Below are positions 19,421 to 56,946 of a stretch of DNA of 64,000 nucleotides, one piece after another; within the stretch, counting starts at the first letter, position 1, and each line of letters opens with the position of its first letter. The notes beneath the pieces were generated by a model. The model was not told the DNA's origin, ran no database searches, and was given only the letters and a program-made list of their open reading frames with translations. The stretch covers positions 25,048,001 to 25,112,000 of the forward strand of contig CM060733.1 in NCBI GenBank assembly GCA_030704615.1, in the 5' to 3' direction. Source of the stretch: Takakia lepidozioides (Eukaryota > Plantae > Bryophyta). Position numbers and translations under genes: made by a program.

Positions 19421-19446
19421 TCATGTGGGCATGTGTACTTTGCAGG

Positions 19447-19807
19447 GTTGTTTTCCGAGGAGTGCTCATTTTTCCTGTGCCTTTGGCATGTCCGGCAGGG
19501 TTGGGTGAAACAATCATGCGCGAAAACCAAAGATCCTATCACTGCCGCAAACTTGCTGAAAGATATGGGAGACCTCATGTACTGTAGAGGTGGACCAAAC
19601 AATCCCAAAGAAGGTTTTGCGTGGGTAGCAACAACGCTCCAACGCATGAGAAAGAAATATCCGAATGGGCATGAATTTTTGGACTACATCGATAAGGAAT
19701 GGCGTCCTAAAATAGCAATGTGGTGTACAACAGCTCGCCATGTTCTGCATGCCAGTCAAGACACAAACGCTAGCATTGAGGCATACCATGGAAACTTGAA
19801 GTTATAA
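19447..19807 (+). mobile_element. MULE-like / SWIM-family transposase, downstream exon
   Basis: Follows a tttgcag acceptor: FLCLWHVRQGW (CxxH motif), FLDYIDKEW, DTNASIEAYHGNLK (catalytic-E TN..E..H motif). Confidence 0.8.
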
Positions 19808-34945: not shown

Positions 34946-37505
34946 ATGGAGAGCGGCCCAAATCCTCATTGGTGGATATCAGCGCTAACCAGTGTGACAC
35001 AACCTGGACCACAATCTGGTGACGAGTATATGTTCACTATGCATCATGGACCTCCTGAAGAACTACACAACAGGTATTAGTTTGTGGATGATGACTTCAA
35101 CCTTGCATCTTCAGTTGCATTATATAGCAGTGGTGTTCTAACCCTGTCAAAATTCTGAAAAACCTGTTCTCATTAGGACATGTTTCTTTGAAGTATCTGT
35201 AAGCCATGACAAATTTTGAATCAGTTCAAAATTTGTAACTAGGGGTTTTGAGTCGTGCAGGTCAGCAGGGTTGCATCAGGGGCAATTGTTTTATGGACAT
35301 CCAACTGGCAGCCCCAGTAGGACCTTTACAATCACCACCAGTGTTAAAGTAGGACCAAGTGAGGGACTTCACAAGGTTACAACTGGGGATGGTGGGGATG
35401 TGATCACACTGTGTGAGAAGGGAAGACTGAAAGAGGCACTGCACATCTTGGATGAACAACGTGTTCAGGCAGACTCCAATATTTATGTCTGTCTCTTGCA
35501 GGGGTGCATCAGCATGAGAGCCCTGGCAGAAGGAAAGCAGGTGCATGCCTACATTATCCGAAGTCAATTGAAGCCAAGCATAATTGTATTCAACACTCTT
35601 GTCGACATGTATTGGAAATGTGGGAGTATAAGGGATGCGTGTCAAGTGTTCGACAAAATGGCCGAAAGAAATGTGTTCTCATGGAATGTAATGATTGCAG
35701 GTCATGTGAAGTATGGGCAAGCCAAGGAGGCTTTTAAAATATATGAGCAAATGCGACGAGAAGGGGTGACGCCCAACCGGATCACTTTCATTTGCATTCT
35801 GAAAGCTTGTGCCAGCCTGAGAGCCCTGGAAAAGGGAAAGGAGGTCCATGCTAGCATCATAAAATCTGGAATCCCATCACAAGTTAATTTGGAGAATACC
35901 CTTGTTGACATGTATGCCAAATGCGGGAGTGTAATAGATGCATGTGAAGTGTTCAACAGAATGACCAAAAGAGATGTTGTCTCATGGAATGTAATGATTG
36001 CAGGACATGTTCAGCATGGCCTTGGTGAAGAGGCTCTCAAAAACTATGAGAAAATGCAACAGGAGGGGGTGATGCCTGACATGGTCACATTTATTTGTAT
36101 TCTCAATGCAAGTGCCATCCTTGGAGCCCTGGAAAAGGGCAAGCAAGTCCACGCTGATATCATTAAAGCTGGAATTGTGTCAAATATTATTTTGGAGACA
36201 ACCCTGGTTGATATGTATGCCAAATGCGGGAGCGTAAAGGATGCACGTCAAGTGTTTAACAAAATGAGTAAACGAGACGTGATTTCATGGAATGCGATGA
36301 TCACAGGATATTCTCAGCATGGACATGGTGAAGAGGCTCTCAAACTTTTCGAGCAAATGAAGCAGGCAGGGTTGAAGCCCAACAGCATCACGTTCATTTG
36401 TGTCCTCAATGCATGTGCCAGCCTAGGAGCCTTGGAGAAGGGCAAGGGGGTCCATGTTGACATCATCAAGACTGGAATTGCTTCAGATACTATTTTAGAG
36501 ACATCTCTTGTTGACATGTATGGCAAGTGTGGGAGTATAAAGGATGCGCGTCAAATATTTGACCAAATGTTTAAGCGAAATGTAGTCTCCTGGACTGCAA
36601 TGATGGCAGGATATGCTCGGCATGGGTGTGGTAGGGAGGCACTCCAACTATTCGAACAAATGCAAAAGGAAGGTTTTAAGCCTGACAGGGTAACCTTCAT
36701 TTCAGTTATCTCGGCATGCAGCCATGTGGGTCTAGTGGATGAAGGCCTTCGCCACTTCCATTCCATAAGTCAAGATCATGGCCTGGTGCCTACACTAGAG
36801 CATTTTGGCTGCCTAGTGAACCTACTTGGCCGTGCAGGGCGATTGGATGATGCAGAGGATCTCATCAATAAAATGCCATTCAAACCAGATGCTTCGGTCT
36901 GGGGATCTTTGCTTGGTGCCTGCCGAATTCACGGCGATGTAAACATAGCAGAACGTGCCGCAAAATCCATCGTCAAGAGGGATCCTCAGCATGCTGCTGC
37001 CTATGTGCTGCTATCGAACATCTATGCTGCAGCTGGCAGGTGGGATGATAAAGCAAAGGTGAGAAAAATGATGGAGGATAGAGGTGTCAGAAAGGAGCCA
37101 GGACGCAGCTGCATTGAGGTCAACAACCGAGTGCATGCATTTGTCGTTGACGACAAAATACACCCTCAAATTGGGGATATCCATGCTGAGCTACAGAGGT
37201 TGTCTGTTCGGATGAAGGAGGCTGGATATGTGGCTGACACTCGCTTTGTGTTGCATGATGTGGAGGAGGATCAAAAGGAAATTTCTCTGGGCCACCACAG
37301 TGAGAAGCTGGCCATTGCTTTTGGGCTCATCAGCACACCCCCTGGAATGCCTGTTCGGATAGTCAAGAACCTTCGGGTCTGTGGTGACTGCCACACTGCC
37401 ACCAAGTTCATCTCAAATATTGCTGGGCGAGCTGTTGTTTTACGGGATGCACACCGCTTTCATCACTTTACAGATGGGATCTGTTCCTGTGGGGATTTTT
37501 GGTGA
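34946..37505 (+). CDS. PLS-class PPR protein with E and DYW deaminase domains (organellar C-to-U RNA editing factor)
   Basis: 744-codon ORF 35271-37505 with PLS triplets, E domains, PG box PGRSCIEV, HSEKLA, CGDCH and terminal DFW. A probable first exon 34946-35073 splices in frame to 35261; the start is less certain than the body. Confidence 0.96.
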
Positions 37506-38140
37506 AACAAGCAACGTGCATTGTGGAATTGTCCCACTTACATACATGAAGGCAGGCAGTTGAGAATTTTGTCTATCCGAACTCCTGCCACTAAATGCTA
37601 CAGTCAGTTACTCCCTTATGGGCTATTGAACAGCAGCAGTAAACTCAGTCCTCAAAGATTGCTAGGACAACCATGGGTGGAAGTTCTGTAGTAGTTGCTG
37701 AAAGGTTGCACCCAGGGAGGGAACCATGATTGATGTGCGTTCTCAACCAGTTAGGGTGGGTTGTTGGATTGCAACATACTCATTGCAAGCATGCAACCTT
37801 GCTTAGTGGGGTTTACTAACTGCTGAGGGGGTTTGTGTTCAAGTACATATATTTCAATCCAAGCCCAGCATCATACGGCAACCACAAGGTTCATCTTTCA
37901 TGGCTCCCCTCAACTCCTAATGGTGACCTCTCCCATCTACAGGCTTCAGATTCCATCCTGTCAAAAACAGTAGGCTCGCTGCTACCGAGGAGGTTCACAT
38001 CATTACAACTAATGTCTTCCTTCAGGAGCAACAAACAATGCAGTTGCAGATTTACTACGATGTTTTTTCTGGCCTTCCAGAACCCCACCCCCACCCCCCC
38101 CCATTTACAAGGAACTATCAGCATATAATATCTAGACAAA

Positions 38141-39764
38141 CCTTAATGCTAAAAGTAGCTTGGACCTCAAAGTTAGTTATAGGTAGTTTTGACTAGGCAC
38201 TACCTTAATGCTACAACTAGCTTGGATCTTAACCCCTAAACTATGCCCACAACTGCCTTAATGCTACAAAATAGTTTTGGATCTTAACCCCTAAACTATG
38301 ACTACAACTACCTTAATGCTACAAGTAGCTTGGATCTTAACCCCTAAAGGATGCACACAACTGCCTTAATGAAGTTAGCTTGGATCTTAATCCCTAAATG
38401 ACGACTACAACTACCTTAATGCTACAAGTAGCTTGGATCTTAACCCCTAAACGAGGATCACAACTACCTTAATGCTGCAAGTAGCTTGGACCTTAACCCC
38501 TAACGATGATCACAACTGCCTTAATGCTAAGTAGCTTGGATCTTAACCTTTAAACGATGATCACAACTACCTTAATGCTACAATAGCTTGGATCTTAACC
38601 CCTAAATGATGACTACAACTACCTTAATGCTACAAAAAGCTTGGATCTTAACCCCCTAAACGATGACTACAACTACCTTAATGCTATAAGTAGCTTGGAT
38701 CTTAACCCCTAAACCATGACTCCAACTACCTTAATGCTACAAATAGCTTGGATCTTAACCCTAAGTGACGACTACAACTACCTTAATGCTACAAATAGCT
38801 TGGATCTAAACCCCCTAAACGATGACTACATTAACTACCTTGATGCTACAAATAGCTTGGATCTTTAACCCCTAAATGACGACCGTAACTACCTTAATGC
38901 TACAAATAGCTTGGATCTTAACCCCCTAAACGATGACTACATTTACTACCTTGATGCTACAAATAGCTTGGATCTTAACCCCTAAATGACGACTGCAACT
39001 ACCTTAATGCTACAAAAAGCTTGGATCTTAACCCCCTAAATGATGACTACAACTACCTTAATGCTATAAGTAGCTTGGATCTTAACCCCTAAACGATGAC
39101 TCCAACTACCTTAATGCTACAAATAGCTTGGATCTTAACCCTAAGTGACGACTACAACTACCTTAATGCTACAAATAGCTTGGATCTTAACCCCCCTAAA
39201 CGATGACTACATTAACTACCTTGATGCTACAAATAGCTTGGATCTTTAACCCCTAAATGACGACTGCAACTACCTTAATGCTACAAATAGCTTGGATCTT
39301 AACCCCCTAAACGATGACTACATTTACTACCTTGATGCTACAAATAGCTTGGATCTTAACCCCTAAATGACGACTACAACTACCTTAATGCTACAAAAAG
39401 CTTGGATCTTAACCCCCTAAACGATGACTACAAATACCTTAATGCTATAAGTAGCTTGGATCTTAACCCCAAACGATGACTACAACTACCTTAATGCTAC
39501 AAATAGCTTGGATCTTAACCCTAAGTGACGACTACAACTACCTTAATGCTACAAGTAGCTTGGATCTCAACCCCCTAAACGATGACTACATTAACTACCT
39601 TGATGCTACAAATAGCTTGGATCTTAACCCCTAAATGACGACTACAACTACCTTAAATGCTACAAGTAGCTTGGATCTTAACCCCTAAACGATGATCACA
39701 ACTGCCTTAATGCTACAAATAGCTTGGATCTTAACCCCTTAATGACGACTACAACTACCTTAAT
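38141..39764. repeat. ~53-bp tandem satellite, ~30 copies, with a 7-mer (~380 bp) higher-order repeat
   Basis: Consensus ACTACCTTAATGCTACAA(A/G)TAGCTTGGATCTTAACCCCTAAA(C/T)GA(T/C)GACTACA; the variant CTAAGTGACG recurs at 38761, 39141 and 39521. Confidence 0.97.
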
Positions 39765-40067
39765 TCTAGCCCGCCAAAAAAAATGCCACTAGAACTCGTC
39801 GTGCCAAGTTTTTCGGAGTTGCCCCGGACTGCCTGATTCTTGATCTTCTTTGAACTGCAGGAGGGGTTTCACATGCCTATCGCAGTTGCAGATTATGAGT
39901 ACATCGCATGAGCTCTCACAGATGGTGGGACAACCGCAATCACAAAGTGTGGTTTTTCTTAATGTACGATGTGAAGAAGTTTGTCCATCCTGCAAATGTG
40001 GGCTCTTAGTACCATGATTTGGTATTCTTCCTTATGTTTACAAGGTTCTGGGGCGACTACAGCTTGG

Positions 40068-40386
40068 TGTCAAGTTATTTCACCACTAGTGTGAAACTAG
40101 CTAGAAAATAGCTAGTTTTTACATATTGACATTTGGGATGGGCCCAAGTGTCAATCCAGGGATCAAGGCAGATTTAGGCCCTGGAGTGGTTATCTTCACG
40201 GCAAGCGCGGGAGGCTCATCTTTCTCGAGTTGAGCCTCACCGCGCCTACCTATGGCGCCGTAATGTGGATCCCCATGGCGTGGGGTGCACTGGCTTGACT
40301 TGTTATTTGAGTGATGAGGTTATTTATGCATGAGTTATGCTTCACCTTTGTGAGCTCGCATGAGCTTGTGCTTGTATTCTTCTTCT
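40068..40386 (+). repeat. Terminal repeat A, copy 1 (direct repeat of 50890-51234)
   Basis: Near-identical ~320 bp from tgtcaagttatttcaccactagtgtgaaactagctag to gcatgagcttgtgcttgtattctt. Confidence 0.95.
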
Positions 40387-41799
40387 TTATCACTCGAGAA
40401 AGATGAGCTCGTATCTGTGAGTGTCAGATATACGAGTTAGTTTGTAGCACTTGTGGTTTTGCTTGAGAATGAGAGAAACCAGGTTGTTATGCAAGGAGCA
40501 CCATGGAGCTCTTGGTTGTTAGAAGTAGAGGCGATGTGGGTTACGAGGTGGTAGACCTTGGCATTCGATCTTCAGCTTCAGAGATGCAAAACACCATGCT
40601 GAGGTAATTCCAGAGACCTTGATGTTTCAAATTGTGTACATGCATGACGCAAGCACGATTGGGAAGAGGACCAGTCAAAAGCAGATTATAGGGCTTGGTG
40701 GCAAAGCTGAGAACTGGACTTGGGAATGCGAGCTTTCATTGTGTGAAGGATTGCAAGAACAAGCGAAAGGGCTGATTTGGCTTGGGGCAAATCAGTGCAC
40801 TGTGTGGAGTATGTTGAGATTGGGTTCAATCTCGAGTTCAGCATTGAGAGGGCTCTTGTCATGGCAAGAGCAGGGTTGGAACAGGAGCTAAGAGTGGCAA
40901 CAAGGCCATGGATGTGCACCTAGGGTTTCAGAGCTGGGAAGAAGAGCTCTGCACCACAAGAGAGTGTTTGTGGCCGGCGAAATGTAAGCTTAGGGTTCAG
41001 GAGCTTGGCAAGGGCTGTGGAGTGCTTAGTCTTGTCTTAGAGAGCATAAAGGAGTAAGGAGCCAAGATAGGGGGCTGATACCTCTTGTGTGAAGAGGTTG
41101 CATGTGTGGAGCATGTATCAGCTCATTGAAGCTTCCATCTTCAAGCTTGGAGGGCAAGCAAGAAAGGAAGGAAGGGGCTGGTTCCCGTAGGGCATGTCTG
41201 GAGCATGCTTCCCCCCCGGAAGCGGTGTATTTTCAGGTTGGTGGGGGCAAGAAAGAAAGCAAAGGGGCTGATTCTCTGGTGGTGAGAGTGGGGCATGTGT
41301 GGAGCATGCCTTCAGTCCATGGGCTTTTGTTTTCAAGCTTAAAGAACTAGAAGAGAAGGTAAGGGGATGATTGATCTTATGTGATAGTCCGACACTTGTA
41401 GAGCGTGTTCTGAGTTGGGGTTTCAACCTCAAGCCTAGATAGAGCATGCTCTTGAAGTGGCAGGTGTGTAGGGCTGGGAATTAGGCTCTAAGATAGATGC
41501 TGGCCAAGGGAACGCTTGAATGAGTGCTCACAAGGGCTGGAAACCAGCAAGGCTTGGTTGTTTGCCATTGCAGTTTAGTGGCGTGTTTGGGTGAGTCTAA
41601 GTGAGAAAGAAGGCTTGGTTTGGGGCAACCATCTTCCTCATGGCTTAGGGGCTACTATTGGTGGTGTGTTGGGAGCCGAAAGAGCAGAATACCTTGCTGA
41701 TTCTTCACAGCCGCCATAGCTCGGTGCAAAGAAGCCTAGAGTCCAAGAGACACAAAACCCTAGTTGGGCGTGGCTAAAACCTTGGGAGAAATGGTAACG

Positions 41800-42600
41800 T
41801 CATGAGTGGGCCTGTGGGGCTGTGACGGGCTTGTGAGGGGATGGTGATAGGCTGTGGCCTTTGGGGCTGGACCCTGTGACCTTGTAGGGCTGCGACAGGC
41901 TGTGCCTATGGGCCTTGGGGTTTGTGATTGGATTGGACAGGCTTGTGTGACAGACCTGTTGGCGAGCTGTGGGTGTGTTGGCTGATGGGCTGTGAGGGCT
42001 GTGTGGGGGCTGTTTTTGTTTGTTGTACAGGCTAGGGTGTGCACAGTGGCCTGTGGGGATGTGAGGGCTTTGAAGGCTCCTGCCCCTGTTGCCTGTGGGG
42101 CGTGACGGGATATAAGGGGCTGTGACAGGCTAGTGTGTGTGGTGATCGGGCTGGGGATGGGCATTGTGGCGGGCTGGACAGGCGGTGTGCCCGTGTGTGC
42201 AGGTGTGGGGGGCTATGGAGGGGCTATGAGGGGCCGAGACAAGATTTTTGTTTTTTTTTTTTTTTTTTTTTTTTTTTGTTTTTTGTGTTGGCGGGCTGTG
42301 ACTGCTGTGACTGGGCCGTGGGCTGTGCGGGCTATGAGGGATGTGACCCTGTGACTTTGTAGGGCTGTGACAGGCTGTGCCGTGCCTTTGGGGTTGTGAT
42401 GGCTTGTGTGACAGGCTGCGGAATGTGGGGCTGTGCTGACCCGTGACAGTGTAGGGCTTGTTTGGGTTGACAGGCTGGTGGCCTGTGTGGGGCTGGGTGA
42501 CGGTGCGGTGTGACCAGTGAACATGTGGGCTTGTGATGGTTGTGGTGGCCCGTTGACCTGTGGACGGCTGTGTTGACTCGGGAGGCACCGGTGGACTGCC
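41800..42600 (+). repeat. G/T-rich low-complexity array of GGGCTGTG(AC)-like motifs with a poly-T tract, in the element's leader
   Basis: Many GGCTGTG/GGCTTGTG motifs; internal duplication 41870-41955 vs 42345-42415; poly-T at 42245-42285. Confidence 0.8.
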
Positions 42601-43440
42601 TAAGATGGACATGTGGTATTGAAGGCCGGAATTTTGAAGCTCGTGGAGGGCGGCTGGTTTGCGAGTATCTTCATGATATTCCCATGGTCTATGCAAGTGA
42701 GGGAGAGAGGAGAGGAAAGAAAAGTTTGGGATGAGGCATGCTGGGTTAGGCATTGCTTTAGCTTCTCTTTCTCGTAGTTTCCACCTCTCATTAGCCCAAG
42801 ACCTTTCCGTAGGTAGAGGAAAGAGTCAGTCCGGGTTGGGCTGGGGGTGTCCATGCAGGAGCAACACGTGGAGTGTGTTTGGGTGGGGGAGTTGTCGTTT
42901 GATTTCTTGTGTTGGACATCCATACCTGCATGCTTGACTGTGCGCCATGCTAGTTTTGTGTGGGCGCTTTGTTTTTGTATAGGTGATTGGCCCGGGATTT
43001 GATCACCGGCCAGTCCTAGAGCATGCTGTCGTGGTGAGGCTGGGGGGGTGATAACCAGCCAGACCATCATTGTTCTCATGTGGTGAGGTGGAGGTGGGAT
43101 GACAGCCAACCATAGGAGTGCTTGCGGTGGCTGGATGCATGGTACAGGGTGCTATGTTCCAAACCATAAGCCGCAACAGGTTCCTACCCGGTTTACCTTG
43201 TGGAGAGGGGGTTAGGGACATGTTCATGACCGGTTGAGTGTCAAACACGGAGGTGCCACTAGTTGCTGGGGACAGTGCCGATTCGAGCACTAGCGATACT
43301 AGTGGGTACACGAGACGAGGTGTGCGGTTTAGGCCACCTTCACAACCTGGTGTCTCAACGGAAGGTTCTGATTCGGATGTGAATCAGAGGACTCATACCG
43401 GCGGTTGCAAGTTGTTTCCTTGCCATTGTTGTGGGACACA

Positions 43441-44640
43441 ATGGAGGAGATGTATGGAGCTATCAAGGGGCCACGAAGGTACTCTGGGGTGGTGGGCACC
43501 ATCGAGTTGGATGATTTTATCCAAGAGTTTGATAGTTGGTTGGATTTGCAGCAAATGCGCAATCCACAACTATTTACGCCTTTCATGGCATGGAAGGGGT
43601 TGTTTCAGCACCTTGAGGGCCGCCTTTGGATGATACCAGAATTAAGGCGGGGGGCATGAGGTTGAGATCGAGGAGTGGAGGATGTACTGGTCACCCGACT
43701 ATGTCTCCATCACTAGGCGCTAGAGCCACGAGGGCAGTGGGCTACACCTGCCGCTGCCACCAGCAGCTTCAACAAGTAGCAGTGGGACTAGTGGGACTCT
43801 GGTACAGTAGCTACGACGTCCACCCAAGCCACTACCGCACCAGCACTAGTACACGTGCCTGCCTTCAACCCTGTTGTGGAGTTCTCGAAGAGTTGAGAGG
43901 GAACTACAAGGGGTGATGACAGAGAAGTTGCGGAGCTTGCAGAGTTTCCAACGGAAGCCGACCGATGAGAGCTTGAGGGAGGTTTTCACTCGCATGAGGC
44001 GCTTGATTAAATGTAACCCAAGGGTTACGGAAGCTCAGGCAGTCCAAATTCTGGTATGGGATATTGGACAAGGAGCTGAGGAGAAGGGTGCGGGGGATTG
44101 CAAATCTCCTACAAGCGACCCAACCCACCTTAGCAAATGTGTTTGTTTTTGCTAGTGGTGCTCCTAGCCAAACCACTACCTCAAGTGGTGCTCCTAGCCA
44201 ACCACTAAAAGTGCTCAAGGGGGGCGGGGCTCAGGTGAAGCTCAGGGAAGGGCAGAGAGGACCCTCAGATGCCGGTCTCTCCCTTCATTTGCTGGCCAAC
44301 AAAGGGCGGATGTGGTGTGCTGGACATGTGGAGGACCCCATGTCAAGAGGATTGCCCAGAGGGAGGCAAAGGGCCTGCACAGTTGCAGTGTGGGCATTGT
44401 GGCAAGCACGGGCATGGAGAGGCCCAGTGTTATGGTTTGCATCCTGAGTTGCGCCCAGGCCAGTTCCAAGGGAACAATGGTGGCGGGGCGAGGTGGAGCA
44501 GCCAGAGAGGACGAGGTGGTCGGCCACGAGGTGCAGGCCAAGGGCAAGCTCAACATGGCCAAGGACGCGGAGGTCAGGTGTTGACCAAGGCATGGCCAAC
44601 CGGCTTCAGCAGCTAGAGCAGAGGCTCGCTGCCATGGCTA
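43441..44640 (+). pseudogene. gag: gag with two zinc knuckles
   Basis: MEEMYGAIKGPRRYSG...LDDFIQEFDSW; EKLRSLQSFQRKPT.ESLRE; CWTCGG.H....C at ~44318; CGHCGKHGHGEAQC at ~44389. Confidence 0.85.
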
Positions 44641-45364
44641 CAGCTCAGGTGGTACCGGCTCTAAGGCCGGATGGTCCACCTCCTGTTCCTGAGGGAGGAG
44701 GATATGGGAGGCATGGGATTCATGTGTGGAGCAGCACTACCATAGTGCAGGTGGAGTCTGCTGCAGCCGTGACTCGAGAGCAGCACGAGTTCCTGAGCCA
44801 CGAGGTGTAGAGGTGGAGTTGGATTCACAGCGTGGGGAGGCAAGCCGTCAAGCTAGGCTTCCTCAGTCATTCACATTGGTGGAGACAGTGTCGACGCCAT
44901 CCATGGCACCTAGTTCTCGCCGACTGTTACCGAGGCGGAGGTTACTATGCCATTGGGGAGAGCTACACGGGTAGCACCACTACCTAGTGTTGCCAAGGCT
45001 ACGGCAGCTAGTGTGCTGCTAGGAGCGGCCACATCTGTGTGCCAGGCTCCATTGTTCTCGGCTACCATGATTGCGACGCCGGGGGTAAGACCAGCTGAGG
45101 TGTTCAGGCTGGCAGCTACACTCTGTGAGAGTGGGGAGGTTACTTCATCTTCTGCGGAGATAGTGGGAGGTGTAGTGCCGGAGGGATCCTCGGATTTGAG
45201 GGTCAAGACTGCCACGGCGGCGCCATGGCAAGCTGCAGCTGTCAGGTTGATGAGCTGCCAGCTAGGCCAGCCATTGAGCGCGCCATGGTGACACCTGGAG
45301 TTGTCATGTTAGACAACCAGGATGGCATTTTCTGTTTGAGTGGACCGGCAGGCAAGAGGTACCG

Positions 45365-45700
45365 GCCACTGCGGGTCTGTTGGACTCGGGAGCTCAGCCA
45401 TTGATGCTAGGCAGAGCTGCTATTGCAGGCTTGGGCCTCACGGAGGGGATATGGAGCCTTGTCCTTTCCAGATACAGACGTCTCTGGGAGGATCGGAGCA
45501 GGCTCGGGGCATGACACGGCGTGAGTTGGCTATCAGACTACGGCCGGATCACCCTACAGATGGCTCAGTGATGCGAGCCAAGGCCATTGTGACAGACGCG
45601 GTCTCATACGATGTCCTGGTTGGTGGGGCAGTGTTGTACCCCATGGGCTTCACCCTGGATTTTTGGGAGGAGTCAGCTTCCTATAGGCCTGCATGGCAGT
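45365..45700 (+). pseudogene. Retropepsin aspartic protease
   Basis: LDSGAQ active-site motif (GAC at 45383) and downstream SYDVLVG. Confidence 0.85.
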
Positions 45701-46091
45701 CAGGGGAGGGCCGGCGTGTGCAGCTCCCTGTGACGTTCATAGGAGGAGTTGCGGTTGCCCAGCGAGGCAAGATGCCGACACTAGCAGCATTCCAGTGGCA
45801 GTGAGTTGGCCTAGAGAGTTGCTTGAGGGCAACGCTCATTCAGAGGATGTGCCACCTCCGGGAGAGCAGGATGACATATGGTATGGCGGAGTTGCCTACC
45901 ATGGTTGCTCAGACTCCATTGTGGGGCACGAGCAAGGATTTGCAGCGGGATGCTGATCGACGGGTGCAACAAGCCTGGGTGGAGGCTTTTGTACCGTCAG
46001 GAGAGGAGGAGAGTGTGGGATTGCACCAGGACCACCTCAGTTGTCTCCATTGGACACCACACCTATTGTGTGGCAGTATCCGGATGAAGGC

Positions 46092-47030
46092 ATTTGTCTT
46101 CTGGACTTGTTTGGCGGGATCAGCACCGGATTGGCTGCTGTGTTACAGGCAGGTGTACGAGTTCGGCGTTACCTGTATGTGGAGAGGGATGAGACTGCAC
46201 GACGCGTTTCACTTCGCCATGTTGCTCAGTTGGTGCAGCGGTACCCTGAGTTGTTGTCGGTGTCTGCAATTCGTGGATATCAGCAGGCCTTGCCAGCAGA
46301 CATTTCGTTGCTGGGGGCGCAGGATTTGGAGCGGGTTGGCTCCATTGATCTGGTAGTGGCAGGTTGGCCCTGCCAAGGGCATTCATCAGCCGGGCATGGC
46401 AATGGATTGCGAGACTCGAGGTCGGGTCTGTTTTGGGAGATGGTGCGGGTTTTGCGCCACTTGCAGCTTCATCAAGCTGTATCTCCAGCATACATCTTGG
46501 AGAATGTGCCACTGATGGGCGATTCTCGGGCCAGGGTGATGGCCAGTGTGCATCAAGTCCGGTCGTGGCTTGGGTCAGCAGTGTTGCTAGATGCAGCTAC
46601 AGTGGGGTCACGGGCTCATCGTCCACGGCTATGGTGGACTAACTTGATGCCACCCGCACTGCTCAAGCGTGCATTTGATGGGGTGCAGCGGCCAGCACAT
46701 CTCACAGTGGATAGCATTCTGGACACAGGGAGGCAGTCTCAGCGTGTGAGACACGATGACCGTTTGCCTTTGGCAGTGGTCAACAAGGTGGGTCAACCAC
46801 GAGCAGCATTACCTACACTGCTCAGCTTCCCAGGATCGCATGCTTTCCGGGATAGTGGACCTGGCCTCCTGTGGGATGCTCAGTTGCAGCAGTTAGTGGA
46901 GCCTAATGCTGACGAGCGTGAGCGGGCAATGGGTTTACCACTGGTACCACGGCGGTGTCGTCTCTTTCTGAGGCATCACGTCGTCAAGTGTTGGGGCAAG
47001 CAATGGATCTCAATTGCTTGACCTGGATTA
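46092..47030 (+). pseudogene. C5 cytosine DNA methyltransferase catalytic domain, DNMT3-like, inside pol
   Basis: Motif I LLDLFGGISTG, II YVERD, IV DLVVAGWPCQ (Cys 46371), VI ILENV (46500), VIII AHRPRLWWTN, IX ERERAMG.P, X RRQVLGQAMD. One frameshift near 46940. Confidence 0.93.
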
Positions 47031-47479
47031 TCAGCTTGGCTATGGCTGAGCAACGCAGAGTGCGGAGTACACTTCCCTCGATGGTCTCTCTGCCTACCGA
47101 GACGGTACAGGCAGTGAGTGGGGGCGAGCATGTGAGGACCATGGGGTGCATGCATCCATGGCACACGTGGGAGGTGCTCGAGGTTCAGAGGGAGTTGGCA
47201 GCCAAGGTGGCGATGATGGATGAGGTTGGGGATTTTTCTCGGGTTGAGGAAGTCCTGAGGATGAGATGATGGGGCAGGATGAGGCCTTGTCATTGACTGA
47301 GCAGGTAGGGAGTACTGCTCAAGAGGTTGCAACATAGCAACCACTGGACGCGTCCTCTACCTCTAAGCCCACTGGACTTAAGGTTGCAGTTACGGAGGAC
47401 AATTGGGAGCCTGACATTGGACCCATTGTCACCGGAGGAGAGAGACGAGACGTATACGGCGGTTCCTGAGGGCTTACAT

Positions 47480-48825
47480 GAATTGCTTTGCCTTCAGTTT
47501 GAAGGACTTGGGAGCACTGAAGGGTCAAGAGATCCGTATTGAGTTGGCCACTGACACGCCAATCTTTCGGAGACCCTATAGATACAGTGACATGGAGAGG
47601 TCTTTGATTCAGATGAGGACTCAAGATCTCTGGGAGGCAGGTTTGGTGGAGCTCTCTGGTGGAGAGTATGCTTCAGCCACAGTGATGCCAGCCAAGAAGG
47701 ATGTCTATGGCAATTGGACGGAGAGACGTATGTGCGGTGATTACCGGCCTGTAAATCGTCAGACCAAGTCCGATAAGTATGCCATGCCAACACCAGAGGA
47801 GATCTTTGATGCCATCGGGCATGCTAAGGTCTTTAGCACTTTGGATTTACGATATATCACCAGTTGCCAATCAAGGAGGCGGACAAGCAGAAGACGACAT
47901 TCTGGGGGATCAATGAGCACGGCAAGGATTGCCTATATCAGTGGCGGTTCTTACCATTTGGGCTTAAGAATGCTCCTGCAGAGTTTCAGAGAGTCATGGA
48001 TAGGATTCTAGCAGGGGTGGACTTTGCTCGTGCTACATAGATGACATCATCATCTTTAGTGTTACGATGGAGGAGCATGAGAGACACCTTCAGGTGGTAT
48101 TGGAGCGCTTGAGAGCGCACGGATTGAAGTTGCATCCGGGGAAGTGCAAGTTTTTCCACAACCAGATTGAGTATCTGGGTCATATGATATATCCTGGAGG
48201 ATTGGGGGTACAGCAGACTAAGGTAGAGGCCATTGCACAAATTCCACGCCCCACGGATGTGAGCCGAGTTCGAGCTTTCATGGGGTTGGCAAACTATTAT
48301 AGACGGTTTGTCAAGGGATTTAGTACCATTGCAAAGGCTCTAACCAAGCTGACCAAGGTGGACCAGAAGTGGCAGTGGGAAGATGAGCAGGAACGAGCTT
48401 TTCAAGAGCTCAAGGCGAGGTTGACCTCGGCGCCTATCCTAAGACGACCTATCAGGGGCGTCCTTTCAGCTGCATACGGATTGGAGCATGCTGGGGCTTG
48501 GAGCGGTGCTCACACAGGTGGATGATGAGGGAAGAGAGTTCGTAGTGGCTTATGCTAGCCGCTTAAACAACGCTGCAGAGGCTAAGTATAGCTCATATGA
48601 GGGAGAGTGCTTAGCTGCAGTGTGGGCCGTGGCACACTTCAGGTGCTATCTATACGGCAATCTTTTCACCCTTGTCACGGATCACCAGCACTCAAGGTTG
48701 ATGGAGTCAGACAAGCTTACGGGGAAGCTTGCACGGTGGGCACTCATACTCCAGGAGTATGACTTTCAGGTGTGCATCGACCGGGTTTGGTCAATCGGGA
48801 TGTGGATGGATTGAGTCGCAATCCA
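47480..48825 (+). pseudogene. pol: Reverse transcriptase and RNase H
   Basis: RRMCGDYR, FSTLDLR, LPFGLKNAPAEFQ, YIDD (~48035), IEYLGH; FQLHTDWS..GLGAVL, VAYASR, SSYEGECLA, VTDHQ, DVDGLSR. Confidence 0.95.
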
Positions 48826-49209
48826 TGCATGAGCCAGCAGGATGACACTGGAGCTCGGTGGCATGGTGAGACGGACGAGGAATGGTGCCGGGATGGCACG
48901 CATCTGCATTTTTGTGTATCTTGGCATCGGGAGGTCAGGTTGGACCTACAACAGGGATGACTGTAGACGGAGTGTCTGAGGACCCTGAGGCTAGTGATGA
49001 GCCAGGTGGTGCCAGAGATATACATGAGGATTCGGCTGTGTTGGACTACCTCCGCACGGGAGACACGACAGCCACTGTGACTGCCCAGGGAGAGGGATCG
49101 GATCCTGCAACGAGCCAAGAGGTTCAAGTGGGAGGGGATATACCTACTTTGAGTGTGGGAGGATGGTCGGGTGAGGATTGTGCCTCACCCCACAGCGTGC
49201 ACGGTTAGT

Positions 49210-50240
49210 GCGACATGCCCATGAGGAGTTGGGCATTTTGGAGTGCGACGCACTCACAGTTTACTGCAAGGGCAGTATTGGTGGTGTGGTATGCATACAG
49301 AGGGCAACAGTTCGTGGCTAGGTGCATGGGTGTGACAGGGTGCGTGCTTCATTCAACACCCCTACACCACAGTTGCTCCTTTACCAATCATGGGATTGGG
49401 CTACAGGTGGAGTCTTGACTTCGCAGGACCGTTGCCACTGACTATGCGCCACCACAGATATGGTTGGTGATGGTGGAGCAATTCTCCGAGTGGATTGAGT
49501 TGGTTCCATTGCCTGACAAGGCTAGTGAGGGGGCTGCGTATGCATTCTTGGATCGTGTACTTAGCCGATTTGGTGCTCCAGCTGAGGTACTCACGGACCA
49601 GGGAGAGAGTTCTGGGGGAGTTTCAGGCTTTGTGTGATAAAGCCTTGATAGACCACCGCACCACTTCTCGGGATTATCCTGAGGCCGATGACTTAGCAGA
49701 GAGAGTTGTTCAGACGGTGAAGAGGGGTTTGCGCAAGTATGGCTTGCAGAAGGGATACCTAGGAGATTGGGATCTTCGGGTTCCTTGGTTAGCCATGGGC
49801 TACAGGTTCAGCAAACAAGCATCACTTGCCTCCTCTCACCATATTTCCTTCTCTTTGGCCGAGAGTTGGATTTGCCTGCAGCCATTCGTAGGGACACTGC
49901 TCAAGTCCTCAACCTTGATGATCCGGACGTGTGGGTACGTGCATGTGATCAGCGTGCAGAGTTGTTCAAGAAAGTCATGCCCATGGCTTTTGAGAACCTT
50001 GCCATTGCACAACACCGTGATACGTTGAGGTATGCCACTATACGTGGTGGAGGATATCGTCCTGGGGTTCGGAGGTTTAGCCTGGTGACTATGTTTATTT
50101 GCAGCAGACTGCTCCTACGACTCTAGATGTTACTGCAGGGCGTGTTATTCTGAGGGTTCAAGAGGTGTTGCCCTCAGGGGTCCTGATCTTGAGGGTCGGG
50201 ATGGCATGACTTGGAACCATGTGCGTAATTGTGCGCCATG
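49210..50240 (+). pseudogene. DDE integrase
   Basis: HEELGHFG...YWW...C..C zinc finger; WSLDFAGP; RFGAPAEVLTDQG; DDLAERVVQTVKRGL. Confidence 0.92.
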
Positions 50241-50302
50241 TCACCTTCCCAATGTCGATGGCGGAGTTGACCCAAACTTGGCAGTGGTGTACCTGTTTGA
50301 GG

Positions 50303-50436
50303 TGCATGCTCTGTGGGTCTGCCAAAGGGGCACCACCATGTTGGTGTGTGATCGATGCTCAAGGGGTTGGCATATGGGATGCTTGACACCACCTCTTGAG
50401 AAGGTTCCTGACGGAGATTGGTTGTGTCCACACTGC
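50303..50436 (+). pseudogene. PHD finger (C4HC3) at the integrase C-terminus
   Basis: CMLC...(frameshift)...MLVCDRCSRGWHMGCLTPPLEKVPDGDWLCPHC. Confidence 0.92.
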
Positions 50437-50700
50437 TGGATAGTGGCAGTGGACATGACTGGAGGCAGCTAACAAGACATGGAGGCCAAGCTCATAGGAG
50501 TCAATACATGAGATCCCAAGCTCAAGTTCACAAGTGCAAGACGGCGACTAACGATGGGGCAACTCTTGCACCCGGCCTCTTGATCTATCGAGTTTGAGTG
50601 TAGTAGGGATAGTGGTGGAGGACTTAGTGAGGCTATGGTCACTATCACATCTTGTGGCTATCTGGACTTAGAGGGACCTAAGCACCAGCTAGGGGGCGAT

Positions 50701-50887
50701 TGTGTGGACTAGTGACTGCCATAGTGGGCAGCATAGTGGCAGCCTAGTGACTGACTAGTTGTAGCCTAGTGGTTGGACTAGTGCTGGACTAGTGGTGGAC
50801 TAGTGGTATACTAGTGTGTGGTGTGCACATGTGTTGTGTGGTTTTGGACAGCGATGTAGTTGTGTAGCAATATGTATGCGCACGACA
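50701..50887 (+). repeat. Terminal repeat B, copy 1 (TG...CA, 187 bp), preceded by a PPT-like AGGGGGCGA (50691-50699)
   Basis: Direct repeat of 52971-53151; rich in (A)CTAGTG motifs. Confidence 0.92.
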
Positions 50888-50889
50888 GC

Positions 50890-51234
50890 TGTCAAGTTAT
50901 TTCACCACTAGTGTGAAACTAGCTAGGAAATAGCTAGTTTTTACATATTGACATTTGGGATTGGCCCAAGTGTCAATCCAGGGGTCAAGGCAGATTTAGA
51001 GCCTGGAGTGGTTATCTTCACGACAAGCGCGGGAGGCTCATCTTTCTCGAGTTGAGCCTCACCGCGCCTAGCTATGGCGCCGTAGTGTGGATTCCCCATG
51101 GCATGGGGTGCACTTGGCTTGACTTGTATTTGAGTGATGAGGTTATATATGCATGAGTTTATGCTTCACCTTTGTGAGCTCGCATGAGCTTGTGCTTGTA
51201 TTCTTCTTATTCTTATTCTTATTCTTATTCTTCT
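50890..51234 (+). repeat. Terminal repeat A, copy 2, ending in a (TTATTC)n expansion
   Basis: Matches 40068-40386; joined to B1 through the palindrome GACAGCTGTC. Confidence 0.95.
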
Positions 51235-52970
51235 TCTAACATGACAACTCCAGGTGTCACCATGGCGCGCTCAATGGCTGGCCTAGCTGGCAGCTCTATC
51301 AACCTGGCAGCTACAGCTTGCCATGGCGCAGTCGTGGCAGTCTTGACCCTCAAATCCGAGGATCCCTCCGGCACTACACCTCCCACTATCTCCGCAGAAG
51401 ATGAAGTAACCTCCCCACTCTCACAGAGTGTAGCTGCCAGCCTGAACACCTCAGCTGGTCTTACCCCCGACGTCGCAATCATGGTAGCCGAGAACAATGG
51501 AGCCTGACACACAGATGTGGCCGCTCCTAGTAGCACACTAGCTGCCGTAGCCTTGGCAACACTAGGTAGTGGTGCTACCCGTGTAGCTCTCCCCAATGGC
51601 ATAGTAACCTCCGCCTCGGTAACAGTCGGGCGAGAACTAGGTGCCATGGATGGCATCGACACTGTCTCCGCCAATGTGAATGACTGAGGAAGCCTAGCTT
51701 GACGGCTTGCCTTCCCACGCTGTGGATCCAACTCCACCTCTACACCTCATGGCTCAAGAACTCGTGCTGCTCCTCGAGTCACGGCTGTAGCAGACTCCAC
51801 CTGCACTAGTGGTAGTGCTGCTCCACACATGAATCCATGCCTCCCATATCTCCTCCCTCAGGAGCAGGAGGTGGACCATCCGGCCTTAGAGCCGGTACCA
51901 CCTGAGCTGTAGCCATGGCAGCGAGCCTCTGCTCTAGCTGCTGAAGCCGGTTGGCCATGCTTTGGTCAACACCCTGACCTCCGCGTCCTTGGCCATGTTG
52001 AGCTGCCCTTGGCCTGCACCTCGTGGCTGGCCACCTCGTCCTCTCTGGGCTGCTCCACCTCGCCCCCGGCCACCATTGTTCCCTGGGAACTGGCCTGGGC
52101 GCAACTCAGGATGCAAACCATAACACTGGGCCTCTCCATGCCCGTGCCTGCCACAATGCCCACACTACAACTGTGCAGGCTGTGCATGTGCCGACCCTTT
52201 GCTTCCCTCTGGGCAATCCTTCTTGACATGGTGTCCTCCACATGTCCAGCACACCACATCCGTCCGTTGTTGGCCAGCAAATGAAGGGAGAGACCCCTGC
52301 ATCCGAGGTCCTCTCTGCCCTTTCCTGAGCTTCACCTGAGCCCCCTTGTTGCCTTGAGCACGTTGAGGTAGTGGTTGGCTAGGAGCACCACTACCCTGTG
52401 GTGTCTCCTTAGCAAATCCCACCATGATCACTCGTTCCTCCACCATGTTGAGCTCTATCCGCTCTGCCAGCAAAAACACATTTGCTAAGGTGGGTTGGGC
52501 AGCTTGTAGGAGAGTTGCATCCCGCACCCTTTTCCTCAGCTCCTTGTCCAATATCCCATACCAGAATTGGACTGCCTGAGCTTCCGTAACCTCTTGGGTT
52601 ACATTTATCAAGCGCCTCATGTGAGTGAAAGCCTCCCTCAAGCTCTCGGTCGGCTTCCGTTGGAACTCTTGCAAGCTCCGCAACTTCTCTGTCCTCACCC
52701 CTTGGTAGTTCCCTCTCAACTCTTCGAAGAACTCCACAACAGGGTTGAAGGCAGGCACGGGTACTAGTGCTGGTGCGGTAGTGGCTTGGGTGGATGTCGT
52801 AGCTACTGTACCACTAGTCCCACTAGTCCCACTGCTACTTGCTGAAGCTGCCGGTGCAGCGGCAGGTGTAGCCACTGCCCTCGTGGCTCTAGTGCCCCTA
52901 GTGATGGAGACATAGTCGGGTGACCAGTATATCCTCCACTCCTCGATCTCAACCTCATGCCCCCGCCTGA
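51235..52970 (-). mobile_element. Inverted copy of the gag / gag-protease linker (corresponds to 43643-45313)
   Basis: ORFs 52165..52875(-) and 51225..51737(-) reproduce peptides of 43.7-45.3 kb(+), e.g. MPLGRATRVAPLPSVAKATAASVLLG. Confidence 0.96.
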
Positions 52971-53151
52971 ACTAGTGACTGCCATAGTGGGTAGCATAGT
53001 GGCAGCCTAGTGACTGACTGGTTGTAGCCTAGTGGTTGGACTAGTGGCTGGACTAGTGGTGGACTAGTGGTATACTAGTGTGCGGTGTGCACATGTGTTG
53101 TGTGGTTTTGGACAACGATGTAGTTGTGTAGCGATATGTATGCGCACGACA
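52971..53151 (+). repeat. Terminal repeat B, copy 2 (lacks the first 7 nt of B1)
   Basis: actagtgactgccatagtggg...tatgtatgcgcacgaca matches 50708-50887. Confidence 0.95.
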
Positions 53152-53542
53152 TTGGTCTTAGCAGGCCATGTTTCAATCTATGCCCGCTTTGCTGCACCGT
53201 GGTGGTTCTCAGAGCCGCAATCCGACATTACCTAACTACAAACACAAGTAGCACACACAACCGAGAAACCAAGTGAAAGAGAGAGAGAAACTTGCACTTT
53301 TTATTAAAGAAAAACTAGGGTAGCCTGTGCCGTGGGCCCAAGTGTCCAATGTCATCTATGTCCAAATGCAATCCCCTATGTATCTAGAGACCCCACAGTT
53401 TGGGAGATCTAGGTAGCTTGCAGGACCATTGGCCCCCATTGGCCCATGTGTGCAGAATTGAAATCTAAGCCCAAGTGCAATCTCCTATGTATCCATGTGC
53501 GTCTCCCATGTAGAGGCCCAAGTGCGACCTCTAGTGTCCAAT

Positions 53543-53912
53543 GTCATCTAAGTCCAAGTGCATCAATATATGAAGCAAGCCATATCTAATCATTTTTTTT
53601 TTTTCACAAAGCCTACGAACAGATTTGAACCGGAGACCTTCCCTTGATATCTCTCATGTCTAGGCTCCAACCATTGTCCCAAGAATGCCCACTTTGCTAT
53701 TTTTGGGGAATTTCCAGCGACCTAAAGTACTTGAAATTCCATATCTCCCACACCGTAGGTCCAAAAATCATGAGACCAAGCACGTGCACCCCCTCCTCCT
53801 CATCATCTAAGTCCAAGTGCATCAATATATGAAGCAAGCCATATCTAATCATTTTTTTTCCACAGAACCTACGACCAGATTTGAACCGGAGACCTTTTCC
53901 TTTGATATCTCT
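53543..53912. repeat. ~112-bp direct repeat (53543-53655 and 53801-53912)
   Basis: tcatctaagtccaagtgcatcaatatatgaagcaagccatatctaatcattttt...agatttgaaccggagacctt occurs twice. Confidence 0.9.
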
Positions 53913-54233
53913 CCCCTCGAGGTTCCCATCATTGTGCCAAGTAAGCCTGTGATGCATGATTCCAGCGCAGCAAGCGTGGGAGATGGTGGGGCCCGCTGGC
54001 CTGAGCTCAGGGAGGCTCGGGAAGACTACTTGTCAAATGTCTTCCCCATTGTGAAGGTGGGGAGCGCTCCACACCTCCTGCTCCCTCCTCACACTCCCCA
54101 CCTTTAGGACCATGTTCCCCAACATTCTCCAATTTTGTTCCCCTATTCCCGGTCCAAGATCCTTGCTCCCCATACTATAACAGGGGAGTGGGGACCGCGA
54201 ATAGGGGAGCGAGCCACATTCCACAGGGCAAGT

Positions 54234-54400: not shown

Positions 54401-56946
54401 TGGGGAGCGGGGACCAAGAACAGGGGAGCGAGGACAAGGGACAGGGATAGGGGAGCGGAATTGGGAACAAGGAGGGGACAGAGGGAACAAGGGAGCGTAG
54501 CGACGATCTTGGACTTAGGATTATTTTGGAGATGAAAAAATATATCAGTCCCATGTGCTACCTACCTATCAGCTGACATGACTATTCTGCCAAGATTGAA
54601 GCTCAAACCTCATCTTAGCAAGACACATCACCTAGCCACCGCACTACCATCTATGTCTAGCATTACACTCAATTTCCTAATGCTTTAATCTACAAATACG
54701 GGCTCGCAGGTGAGAGGGGAGCAAGGAGTGGGGATTTGACAGTGCGCCCTGCCGGAACGTTGCCGGTATGGCCATCCCCGGCGACCTTACTGGCAAGGCT
54801 CCCGCGGTTGCATTCAACTCGTCGGGTAAGCGTAGTCTTAGGTTCAAAGTTCAAAGCTCACCGAAATTCCATTTCCCGACAAAGATAACTTGGTTAAAAA
54901 AGAAAAAGAAAAAACTTGGTTTTTTAAATCCCCTAAGACACACTCACGGCGAGTGTGCCTTGGTTATTACGACATAAGGCACACTCACCGTGATCAGTTA
55001 TTGAACGAGCCATACTTCCATAAAGGAGATGTCGAAGAACTAAGTGTCACCACTCAGTTCTCTAAAACCAAGGACCAATATAATAAAAAATAAATAAAAT
55101 AAAACTACCATTTAGAGATCCAAGAAACTTAAGAACCAACAGCGCTTAAGACACAAACTTATGATGCTACAAAGAGAAGGGACCTTGCTAAAAGGCCTGC
55201 AGAGTCCAAGAAGTCCAAGTCCAAGAAGTCTATCTACGCGATGCAACCAAGGAAGGCCTTAGATGTGTCCAGTTAACGTCCCTGTCGAATTAGGGGGGAC
55301 ATTCTGGAGGGGGGTGCGGAGATCTCTCTATGATCCTCATTTACCTTTAAAAAAAATGACCTCGGTCCTCCGTCCTTTCTCTTTATTTATTTTATTTTAT
55401 TTTTCAGAACAGGGGACAAGCCTGGCCCTGAGGAATTTTATTAATAAAAAAAGGGCTCTTAATAAAGTTTCGAGGGCTACTTCCCTGTGATGATGAGATT
55501 CCCCCTTCACTTGTTTTTTCGCCTTAGATGAATGAAAGAGGGATATCAAAGGGATGGACGGAGTTAGGATGTAATTTGGATGAATTTTTACCTAATGCAT
55601 GAGGTTGAGCTGGGAGCAGCTTACGGCTTTTATTATATGCTGTCTTATTTTAACAGCTAGTTTAGGATTAGATTAGGATGGAATTGGATGATGTGGCTTC
55701 TTTCTATGGTCAGGCTGGAATGACATCTGGCTGACCTATGTGGAAGTGCCACATGGCATAGGGATTGGATTATGACCTAATGCTATTTAAACTACATTGC
55801 CGTGGCAGCAAGGGTGGTTTTTGCTCTCATCTTTGTACAACTGCTGAGTGACGGCGTGCTCAAGTGCTTGCATGAAAGTTGTGCGGATGTTTTAGTCTTG
55901 TTGCGTAAGATTCCGTCTTCTCCGCTTGGCTTGTCTACCGACTACATTCCCATGGTAAAGTTGAGCCCGGTAGAGGGGGAGGAACAAACCCATAGCGCCG
56001 GAATCATGCATCACATCCCCTTGTTCTATTTTTATAAAATGTTTTGAAAAGAAAGTTCAGAAAAACAAAATCAAAATCAACAATTGCAAATGAAGCAGCA
56101 CTGGAGGCTTAGGAAGCGTTGGAGAAAATGGGGAGTTGGTTGGTTGTTTCTTTCAGCACAAGGATGGTGCAGAGGGACAATTGTTGCAGCAGCTGCAGAT
56201 GTGAAGTTGTATTGAGAAGATGACGAAACAGTGACAATTTTGGAATTTGGGAGGATCATGTTTGCTTGTCAGGCATTTTTGGTTGATTGAGCAGCAGGGC
56301 AACAGCCCGCATTGATTTGTCAGTTGTTCAGTTGCTGTTCGGTTTTACACTACTGTAGTGTAGTGTAGAGATCGCATCAGAATTTGACAGAATGGGTCAA
56401 GGGGAGCATTCAGACTTTGACTGAAAGGGTCAAGGGGATGTGCTCCCCTGACATGGGTGGGCACTAGGGGAGGCAGAAGAGAGATTGGTTGGTGGGCCCA
56501 GACCCGCCAGTGTTTTGGAGTGGCAGCGAGCTAGCGAGGATGCGCGATGGCGTGTGGAATGCAGTTGAGCAGCTTGCGGAAGGAGGGTAGTCAGGGCAGC
56601 ACCAGCCATGGCTCATGGCCTGGGCAGATTTGTGACAGATTTAGAGCACTCGTGGCCGGGGGCCAGCTGACCAGCAGGCCCCGAGAAATGGGGGTGGCAT
56701 CAGCTGTTGCGGGACCCAGTACGCTACTCATGGAAGCATGTCCATGCTGGAGGCACACACTGTCAGCTCCTTGTCTATCTCGAGACACTGTGGATGTTGT
56801 GTAGCGTGTCTCTCTCTTTTGCTGGGGCCCAGGTTGTTTCTGTCTCACATGGGCCCTCTGTGGTCGTTATAAGTCTTTTTCTCTACTTCTTTCTCTGGGT
56901 AGTTGAAATTCTTGCCAATAGCGCGGTGTAAGTAGCGAGTTTAGAA

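Follow-up and report, generated by a model that had tools for sequence, protein, structure and literature searches.

A Ty3/gypsy retrotransposon of Takakia lepidozioides with split end repeats and a Gag-protease reading frame that ends in a DNMT3-like methyltransferase

Why a transposon should keep a silencing enzyme is a question that has been open since 2018, and it was posed in algae that are hard to manipulate. The same question is raised by a locus of the moss Takakia lepidozioides (assembly GCA_030704615.1, contig CM060733.1, positions 25,048,001 to 25,112,000, forward strand). The window, meaning the whole stretch of 64,000 nucleotides analysed, contains at 40068-53151 a Ty3/gypsy retrotransposon whose Gag-protease open reading frame (ORF) ends in a cytosine methyltransferase domain. 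The element, its range and its conserved enzyme are held with high confidence. The fuller reading is judged, as a whole, slightly on the probable side: a frameshifted copy of a repeated retrotransposon, the conserved DNMT3-like enzyme of which likely methylates the complementary DNA (cDNA) of the element within the particle, and the split end repeats of which likely let the integrase cut the integration ends from circularised cDNA.

The element, its reading frames and its methyltransferase

An earlier note, made from the letters of the window alone, had placed the element at 43441-50472. The repeats, the target-site duplication and the contigs extend it to 40068-53151. Its ends read TG...CA, and 4 bp of target sequence, TTGG, are duplicated at 40064-40067 on the left and 53152-53155 on the right; a match of 5 or 6 bases is absent. 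The empty site is also seen, as host contigs run from 40053 to 53152 without the element (all host-contig evidence comes from two samples that contain window DNA and were picked by this stretch, one of which may be the source of the window). The flanks (39500-40063 and 53152-54000) are repeated in the host and joined in element-free contigs, and hence the element is nested inside another repeat. Across the methyltransferase and the reverse transcriptase (RT), 1,943 to 103,581 contigs of the two samples fall on the element, numbers that show many diverged copies and are not in themselves a copy number.

The copy in the window is frameshifted, with at least 7 frame changes in ORF1 and at least 8 in ORF2 (at least 15 in total), and no in-frame stops were seen in the correctly aligned segments. 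Some of these breaks may be assembly (sequencing) errors, because a duplicated gag piece in this copy shows 45 gaps to about 54 substitutions, against 0-3 gaps to 22-32 substitutions in the repeats of related loci. Over 40068-53151 the window has A/T where host contigs have G/C about twice as commonly as the reverse (149 vs 71, sample X1), which is the pattern that decay of methylated cytosines would give.

All coding parts lie on the forward strand. A long leader (40409-43440) has no recognised protein, 10 ORFs of 41093-43630 being without a Pfam match, and it does not match the 80 related loci used for comparison (the best 80 of 211; they share a linker with a named Sphagnum protein and are counted as one family). 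It is followed by Gag with a Cys/His knuckle-like region and a linker (43441-45300, frameshifted; 82% to the Marchantia protein P0124 over residues 1-60), for which a Retrotrans_gag match (E 0.0075) falls on the inverted duplicate of gag. The frameshifted aspartic protease (45301-45730) carries LLDSG with its D at 45383, and its homologues match Asp_protease_2. Beyond the methyltransferase and the ORF1 stop come the RT with RNase H (47454-48772, frameshifted, YIDD at 48034; RVT_1 E 9e-16, RT_RNaseH E 1e-32), the DDE integrase with a zinc-finger region (49193-49874, frameshifted, D 49417, D 49596, E 49699; rve E 1e-6) and, at the end of pol, a PHD finger (50297-50436; PF00628 E 4e-10). The Gag-protease-RT-RNase H-integrase order bears out the assignment to Ty3/gypsy, with the methyltransferase placed between protease and RT, downstream of D 45383 and upstream of YIDD, as the note had said. 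A tyrosine recombinase was not found in 30 scanned ORFs of the element.

The methyltransferase domain (46086-47030, +) lies near the end of ORF1 and has one frame change at about 46931-46934. It matches PF00145 with E 3.6e-13 in the stop-to-stop frame 45957-47021. This frame, of 354 codons, is the longest of the 97 ORFs listed for 41000-53000; the note had given 326 codons for the longest ORF. The motifs run in linear order and in pol orientation, as originally read: LFGGISTG at 46107, GWPCQ at 46362 (catalytic C at 46371), ENV at 46500 and HRPRLWWTN at 46617, with RRQVLG in the next frame after the frame change. The domain is collinear with intact homologues and is therefore without introns, again as claimed. 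Among 52 PDB sequence matches to one such homologue (P0002), DNMT3A ranks first and is collinear with it, whereas DRM2 aligns by its C-terminal part only (residues 225-346 against the first half of the query). Likewise, the predicted model of another intact homologue (P0001, 74% identical to the window; pLDDT 86.9) has DNMT3A/B as its best Foldseek matches (E 1.5e-19, TM 0.80 by target). Sequence and model together thus agree with the earlier assignment of a DNMT3-like, unpermuted domain. A domain scan showed DUF3444 to be absent from the window and from 29 homologues, and the ESM Atlas gave generic PF00145 clusters only. The catalytic motifs are retained in the window and in the homologues.

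How the enzyme would be made is suggested by the in-frame stop of ORF1 (47335-47343, +, TAG CAA CCA), which was compared with 55 related loci. The methyltransferase is the last part of the Gag-protease ORF and is separate from the RT ORF; open homologues such as Mp4g09160 similarly run through Gag, protease and DNMT and then stop. The stop is kept in 54 of the 55 loci and CAA follows in all 55, while ORF1 and pol share one frame in 36 of 48. The context in the window is an exact CARYYA, the readthrough context of plant viruses (PMC4132726), and an AUG is absent there. Since the enzyme ends the Gag-protease ORF before an in-frame stop, it is likely made at the Gag level, and Pol by readthrough. 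It is quite likely that ribosomes would make Gag-protease-DNMT and read through the UAG at a low rate, adding RT, RNase H, integrase and PHD, with the methyltransferase packed at the Gag level. Readthrough in itself is held with moderate confidence. Several features of the related loci count against it: an AUG stands 6 nt past the stop in 51 of 55, the stop context is CAACCC and not CARYYA, and UAA is used in 18 of 54 stops, so that re-initiation could operate there. Single-ORF versions with the same domain order exist as well, for example P0375. Under readthrough and re-initiation alike, the methyltransferase would be synthesised together with Gag and would outnumber RT and integrase.

Distribution, descent and possible role of the enzyme

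Is the methyltransferase an accident of one copy or a trait of a family? Homologue searches returned 164 and 75 homologues, the named ones being from Marchantia, Calypogeia, Riccia, Sphagnum, Closterium and Chromochloris, and a profile search gave 560 cluster representatives at E 1e-30 or better. The related family in land plants that the note had expected is present: methyltransferase homologues 68-77% identical occupy the corresponding place in elements of Marchantia, Calypogeia and peat moss, as seen in the Marchantia proteins Mp8g17980 and Mp4g09160 and in Calypogeia, Sphagnum and Closterium proteins. For 20 of the homologous proteins, cluster look-ups gave Scenedesmus and Closterium as the only names. 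Retroelement domains stand beside the DNMT in 175 of 334 homologous proteins; it follows the protease or precedes the RT in 56, lies between RNase H and integrase in 119 (an order that includes Scenedesmus) and is alone in 159. The proteins with DNMT between RNase H and integrase form a large sister group, apparently chlorophyte (P0361 of Scenedesmus and P0170 of Chromochloris are among the examples), of which no description was met in literature searches, none of them aimed at it.

In a DNMT tree (112 of 169 domains; built with FastTree and rooted at the midpoint) as well as in an RT tree (48 of 82 sequences, with a neighbouring Ty3 element of the window as outgroup), the window falls in a land-plant clade of support 1.0 that holds elements of liverworts and peat mosses, and the two domain orders are separated. 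The nearest relatives of the methyltransferase in the DNMT tree are retroelement domains, and the window RT is far from that of the neighbouring element. The trees took in no Klebsormidium (K. nitens) and no host DNMT3 sequence. The 80 loci look like one host group, hence one family and not many lineages.

The enzyme has also been under constraint. Between the window and 75 related loci the proportion of synonymous differences (pS) is 0.74, near saturation (saturated in 33), while nonsynonymous divergence (dN) is 0.23 for DNMT, 0.17 for RT, 0.25 for integrase and 0.27 for Gag. Among close copies dN/dS is 0.54-0.72 for DNMT, 0.32-0.58 for RT and 0.53-0.82 for protease, ratios that are inflated by decay after insertion and come from non-independent pairs under a codon filter favouring conserved stretches. 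The DNMT value of 0.54 above 0.32 for RT speaks against strong constraint among these copies, though it matches the 0.53 of the protease. The comparison of sequences, which the note had proposed as a check, thus points to purifying selection on the DNMT, with a weaker signal among close, decayed copies.

One domain order recurs across dozens of loci and in the genomes of several named organisms, which indicates that the methyltransferase is a family trait and not a one-off capture, as the note had supposed. The opposite explanation, that a single copy captured a piece of a host DNMT3 or DRM gene or that the assembly is a chimera, is already contradicted and keeps almost no probability, for the many indels of the window copy (45 gaps vs 54 substitutions in the duplicated gag piece), which would suit it, may include sequencing error, while the order is repeated across loci and genomes, tens of thousands of host contigs cover DNMT and RT alike, an intron is absent, as is a match to DUF3444, the mark of plant host DNMT3 (PMC6453930), and the nearest relatives are retroelement domains.

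Recent horizontal transfer of the land-plant copies, in place of descent from a streptophyte ancestor, would agree with a protein identity of 68-77% between distant hosts. It is nevertheless quite improbable, given that synonymous sites approach saturation when the window is compared with the related loci, that the repeats align at their ends only and that Closterium has the same domain order. An ancient transfer, as opposed to a recent one, may have taken place.

The closest known system is KnitGypsy-Dnmt3 of Klebsormidium nitens (de Mendoza et al., 2018; PMC5890265), which shares with the Takakia element the Gypsy domains, an intronless and unpermuted DNMT3-like domain, purifying selection and, from the legend of Fig. 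4c, a DIRS-like repeat layout. It was described in K. nitens only, and according to the authors its DNMT shares an ORF with RT and RNase H. In the Takakia element the DNMT ends Gag-protease before an in-frame stop, which makes it a variant and not a plain member of that kind. Readthrough, self-priming, a 4-bp target duplication, an internal junction and a short form are not in the examined text of that paper (which leaves out Fig. 4c and the main supplement), and Marchantia is not among the rows of its species table. The breadth of the family, with liverworts, peat moss and Closterium and a second order in chlorophytes, makes it an extension of KnitGypsy-Dnmt3. The element can be placed as the land-plant representative of the Gypsy-Dnmt3 elements known from Klebsormidium; the homologue searches brought up no named K. 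nitens sequence. The idea that the family was uncharacterised hence holds in part: a land-plant description was not found in the literature (subscription papers, Repbase, figures and preprint supplements were outside the search), while the kind itself is already catalogued in K. nitens. A word search of the available text of liverwort, Sphagnum, hornwort, centromere-atlas and REXdb papers (PMC9985172, PMC9946827, PMC12885004, PMC10952607, PMC6317226, PMC5009743) and of two preprints likewise gave no land-plant description. Later papers call streptophyte Gypsy-DNMT3 previously reported (PMC12344493; bioRxiv 10.64898/2026.05.21.726589), and their trees may include bryophyte copies.

Other systems resemble the element in single traits. 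The EpiLTRs and DAM-LTRs are long terminal repeat (LTR) elements with DNA methyltransferases and a chromatin reader (bioRxiv 10.64898/2026.05.21.726589), but theirs are an adenine methyltransferase, a DNMT4-sister domain and a chromodomain, and the authors set them apart from streptophyte Gypsy-DNMT3. The PHD-bearing Gypsy elements of Chlamydomonas, for example Gypsy-7a_cRei (bioRxiv 10.1101/2022.06.16.496473), have a PHD finger in the polyprotein and an LTR with subparts; a methyltransferase is not mentioned in the description, by which alone they were compared. Plant host DNMT3 (PpDNMT3a/b; PMC6453930) and DRM share the DNMT3-type fold and motifs. Fusion to Gag-protease occurs in neither, however; the host DNMT3 gene is multi-exon and its product carries DUF3444 at the C-terminus, and the motifs of DRM are circularly permuted.

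What, then, may the enzyme do? It could methylate newly made copies ahead of their insertion and so damp or disguise them; such self-methylation of the cDNA stands at even odds. This reading rests on the position of the methyltransferase, its conserved catalysis and the CG activity in yeast of the DNMT3 domain of SymbioDIRS-Dnmt3, a DIRS element of Symbiodinium (PMC5890265). Some results tell against it. A signal of CpG depletion is absent from the element (observed/expected 0.52 in its ORFs, 0.50 in the neighbouring Ty3 element and 0.42-0.62 in the flanks), as is one of CHG depletion, and the Klebsormidium domain gave no methylation in yeast, an outcome that its authors regard as inconclusive (PMC5890265). 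The lack of extra CpG loss would rather suit an enzyme that does its work once integration is over or in trans, its substrate being the target site, competing elements or host chromatin and its guide the integrase PHD, or one that serves as a DNA-binding or packaging module without need of catalysis. Placement in ORF1, which yields far more enzyme than one cDNA needs, and the PHD finger in pol fit this alternative too. Gag-fused proteins are, on the other hand, expected inside the particle, the site of cDNA formation, and the catalytic motifs kept in the window and the homologues argue for catalysis, so that the alternative is considered unlikely. The open Gag-protease-DNMT frames of Marchantia polymorpha (Mp4g09160, Mp8g17980) bring the question to a model plant with methylation mutants, and hidden de novo methyltransferases matter for bryophyte methylome work and for DNMT gene counts.

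Split end repeats and a proposed replication route

The canonical two full direct LTRs of Ty3/gypsy are not present at the ends of the element, which has A on the left and B-GC-A-B on the right; its layout is A-body-B-GC-A-B. Repeat A1 (40068-40392, +) starts with TG, forms the left integration end and is the likely promoter; it is 96% identical to A2, its right boundary being taken from a contig joint of 40391 to 50699. Repeat B1 (50699-50887, +) ends in CA and is 96% identical to B2, and its last 40 bases are 80-87% like the B ends of related loci. The internal junction GACA-GC-TGTC (50883-50892), made of the B end, two bases and the A start, is palindromic and has the shape of a circle junction. 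A2 (50890-51224, +) has lost its final few bases and has an expanded microsatellite; B2 (52967-53151, +) has lost its initial few bases, ends in CA and forms the right integration end. Between them, in this copy only, lies an inverted duplicate (51225-52966, -) of the gag region 43645-45320. Substitutions between the inverted piece and the main copy (3.3%), A1 and A2 (3.4%) and B1 and B2 (3.3%) are alike. A joins B directly in host contigs and in all 7 related loci having both, which rules out the inverted gag piece as a family-wide self-silencing hairpin. Similarly, A1 and A2 as ordinary LTRs are ruled out, as the target duplication flanks B2.

The junction GACA-GC-TGTC is shared between families whose repeats otherwise fail to align, and a two-base spacer is found in all 8 related loci with A after B. 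Among first B copies in related loci, 8 of 22 are followed by two bases and A (the full form) and 14 of 22 by flank. Target duplications were sought for 9 end pairs, which make 8 distinct sites including the window: 5 are exact at 4 bp, 2 have one mismatch and 1 has none, and three of the exact sites belong to the short A-body-B form. Because terminal repeats are lacking in the short form, and a matching LTR pair with target duplication in the full form, standard LTR annotation would likely miss or mis-bound the family. In two related loci (L051 6343-6457, L065 8602-8716) an opposite-strand B repeat stands upstream of gag, probably from a neighbouring copy head to head.

The priming sites can be proposed from pairing. 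A stretch within A1 (40214-40229, +), likely the RNA 5' end and self-primer, forms 16 Watson-Crick pairs with the bases directly after A1 (40393-40408, +), the likely self-priming primer-binding site, which lacks the TGG start expected of a tRNA site. Of 1449 control 30-mers, none reached 11 pairs, and in a related family the pairing is kept with different letters. The paired stretch starts 31 nt after a TATA box in all 7 (of 19) related loci showing both marks, and a clear TATA box is absent at the corresponding place in the window. A conserved block ending in a G tract directly before B1 (50669-50698, +) is the likely plus-strand primer (polypurine tract), nearly the same letters preceding the first B in 25 of 27 related-locus B copies that do not follow A. 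The RNA would start inside A1 and end inside A2. Its 5' end would then pair with the bases after A1 for minus-strand priming, and the G tract before B1 would prime the plus strand, a scheme that is rather probable, with self-priming held at moderate confidence. Priming without a tRNA is known in Tf1/Sushi and predicted for plant Tcn1 chromoviruses in mosses and club-mosses (PMC6317226); these have ordinary LTRs, a chromodomain and no methyltransferase, where the Takakia element has a PHD finger, a DNMT and split repeats.

With a likely primer site after A1 and a likely purine tract before B1, the cDNA repeat would be B-GC-A, with the integration ends CA and TG inside it. In LTR elements the cDNA repeat extends from the purine tract to the primer site. 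In the proposed route, linear cDNA would have B-GC-A at both ends, and end joining would form the A/B joint. The full form would then arise when one CA-GC-TG junction is cut in staggered fashion, each strand being opened behind its CA, whereas cutting at both junctions or later B1-B2 recombination would give the short form. The chances of this route are evenly balanced. The inverted gag piece at the A/B joint, with small losses on both sides and an age equal to the insertion, is what capture during end joining would give, and foamy virus integrase is known to cleave palindromic LTR-LTR junctions (PMC1180852). If the route is true, the element would supply a natural example of a DDE integrase that depends on a circle junction, a pathway known mainly as a retroviral side path.

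Several observations pull the other way. Pairing of at least 9 Watson-Crick bases is found in only 9 of 21 decayed related loci, only 4 of the 8 (decayed) loci with a two-base spacer have GC there, and one of the 9 end pairs (L066) has no target duplication. The weak point of the circle model is asymmetry: from a symmetric circle one would expect mirror forms in which B precedes the left A, and these were seen at 0 of 16 distinct left ends of related loci, against 8 of 22 right ends in the full form. The absent mirror form would be accounted for if template switching on the internal B-GC-A copy regenerated the split repeats in the style of DIRS/PAT elements. The linear cDNA would then carry ordinary TG...CA ends, no circle would be cut, and the short form would come solely from genomic B1-B2 recombination. 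The same repeat layout is known in PAT, Ngaro and VIPER elements (PMC6681497), and SymbioDIRS-Dnmt3 shares with them the A1...B1-A2-B2 split repeats. These elements use a tyrosine recombinase, in contrast to the DDE integrase, TG...CA ends and 4-bp duplication of the Takakia element. Moreover, the primer site and purine tract bound B-GC-A and not A-B, the two-base spacer and palindrome suit a staggered integrase cut, and foreign DNA of insertion age at the A/B joint suits end joining. DIRS-style regeneration is thus doubtful.

Beyond circle cutting in this copy, a wider proposal can be made tentatively. The element may represent a Ty3 lineage that spans the green plants, is abundant in those land plants that lack seeds and escapes LTR finders, with a hybrid route of self-primed reverse transcription, a circle opened by a DDE integrase at an internal palindromic junction, and a Gag-level de novo cytosine methyltransferase that would methylate each copy before insertion.

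Other features of the window

The flanking PPR-DYW and ANTH genes reported by the note are both present. The PPR-E-DYW gene (35220-37502, +) is intact, intronless and PLS-type, with E and DYW domains. Its named matches, among the 120 listed, are all from land plants, and a DYW tree places it, with a weak support of 0.79, close to sequences from liverworts, mosses and lycophytes. A tandem array of units of about 53 bp, in at least 26 copies (38125-39768), lies directly left of the element.

The neighbouring Ty3/gypsy element (14774-17976, +) is unrelated to the methyltransferase-bearing one. It has long open frames with protease, RT, RNase H, an integrase zinc finger and a Tf2-like SH3, and no methyltransferase was seen in it. 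The stretches on its two sides (14308-14910 and 19415-19804, +) may be one transposase-like gene split by it, with a weak DUF5575_C match. Pieces of host genes occur at 1982-2329, 5314-5670, 10457-10972, 20091-20507, 27385-32339 and 56932-60645, and comprise a seed maturation protein, two chitinase-like fragments (without Pfam match), a PGG domain, the ANTH gene and an S28 peptidase.

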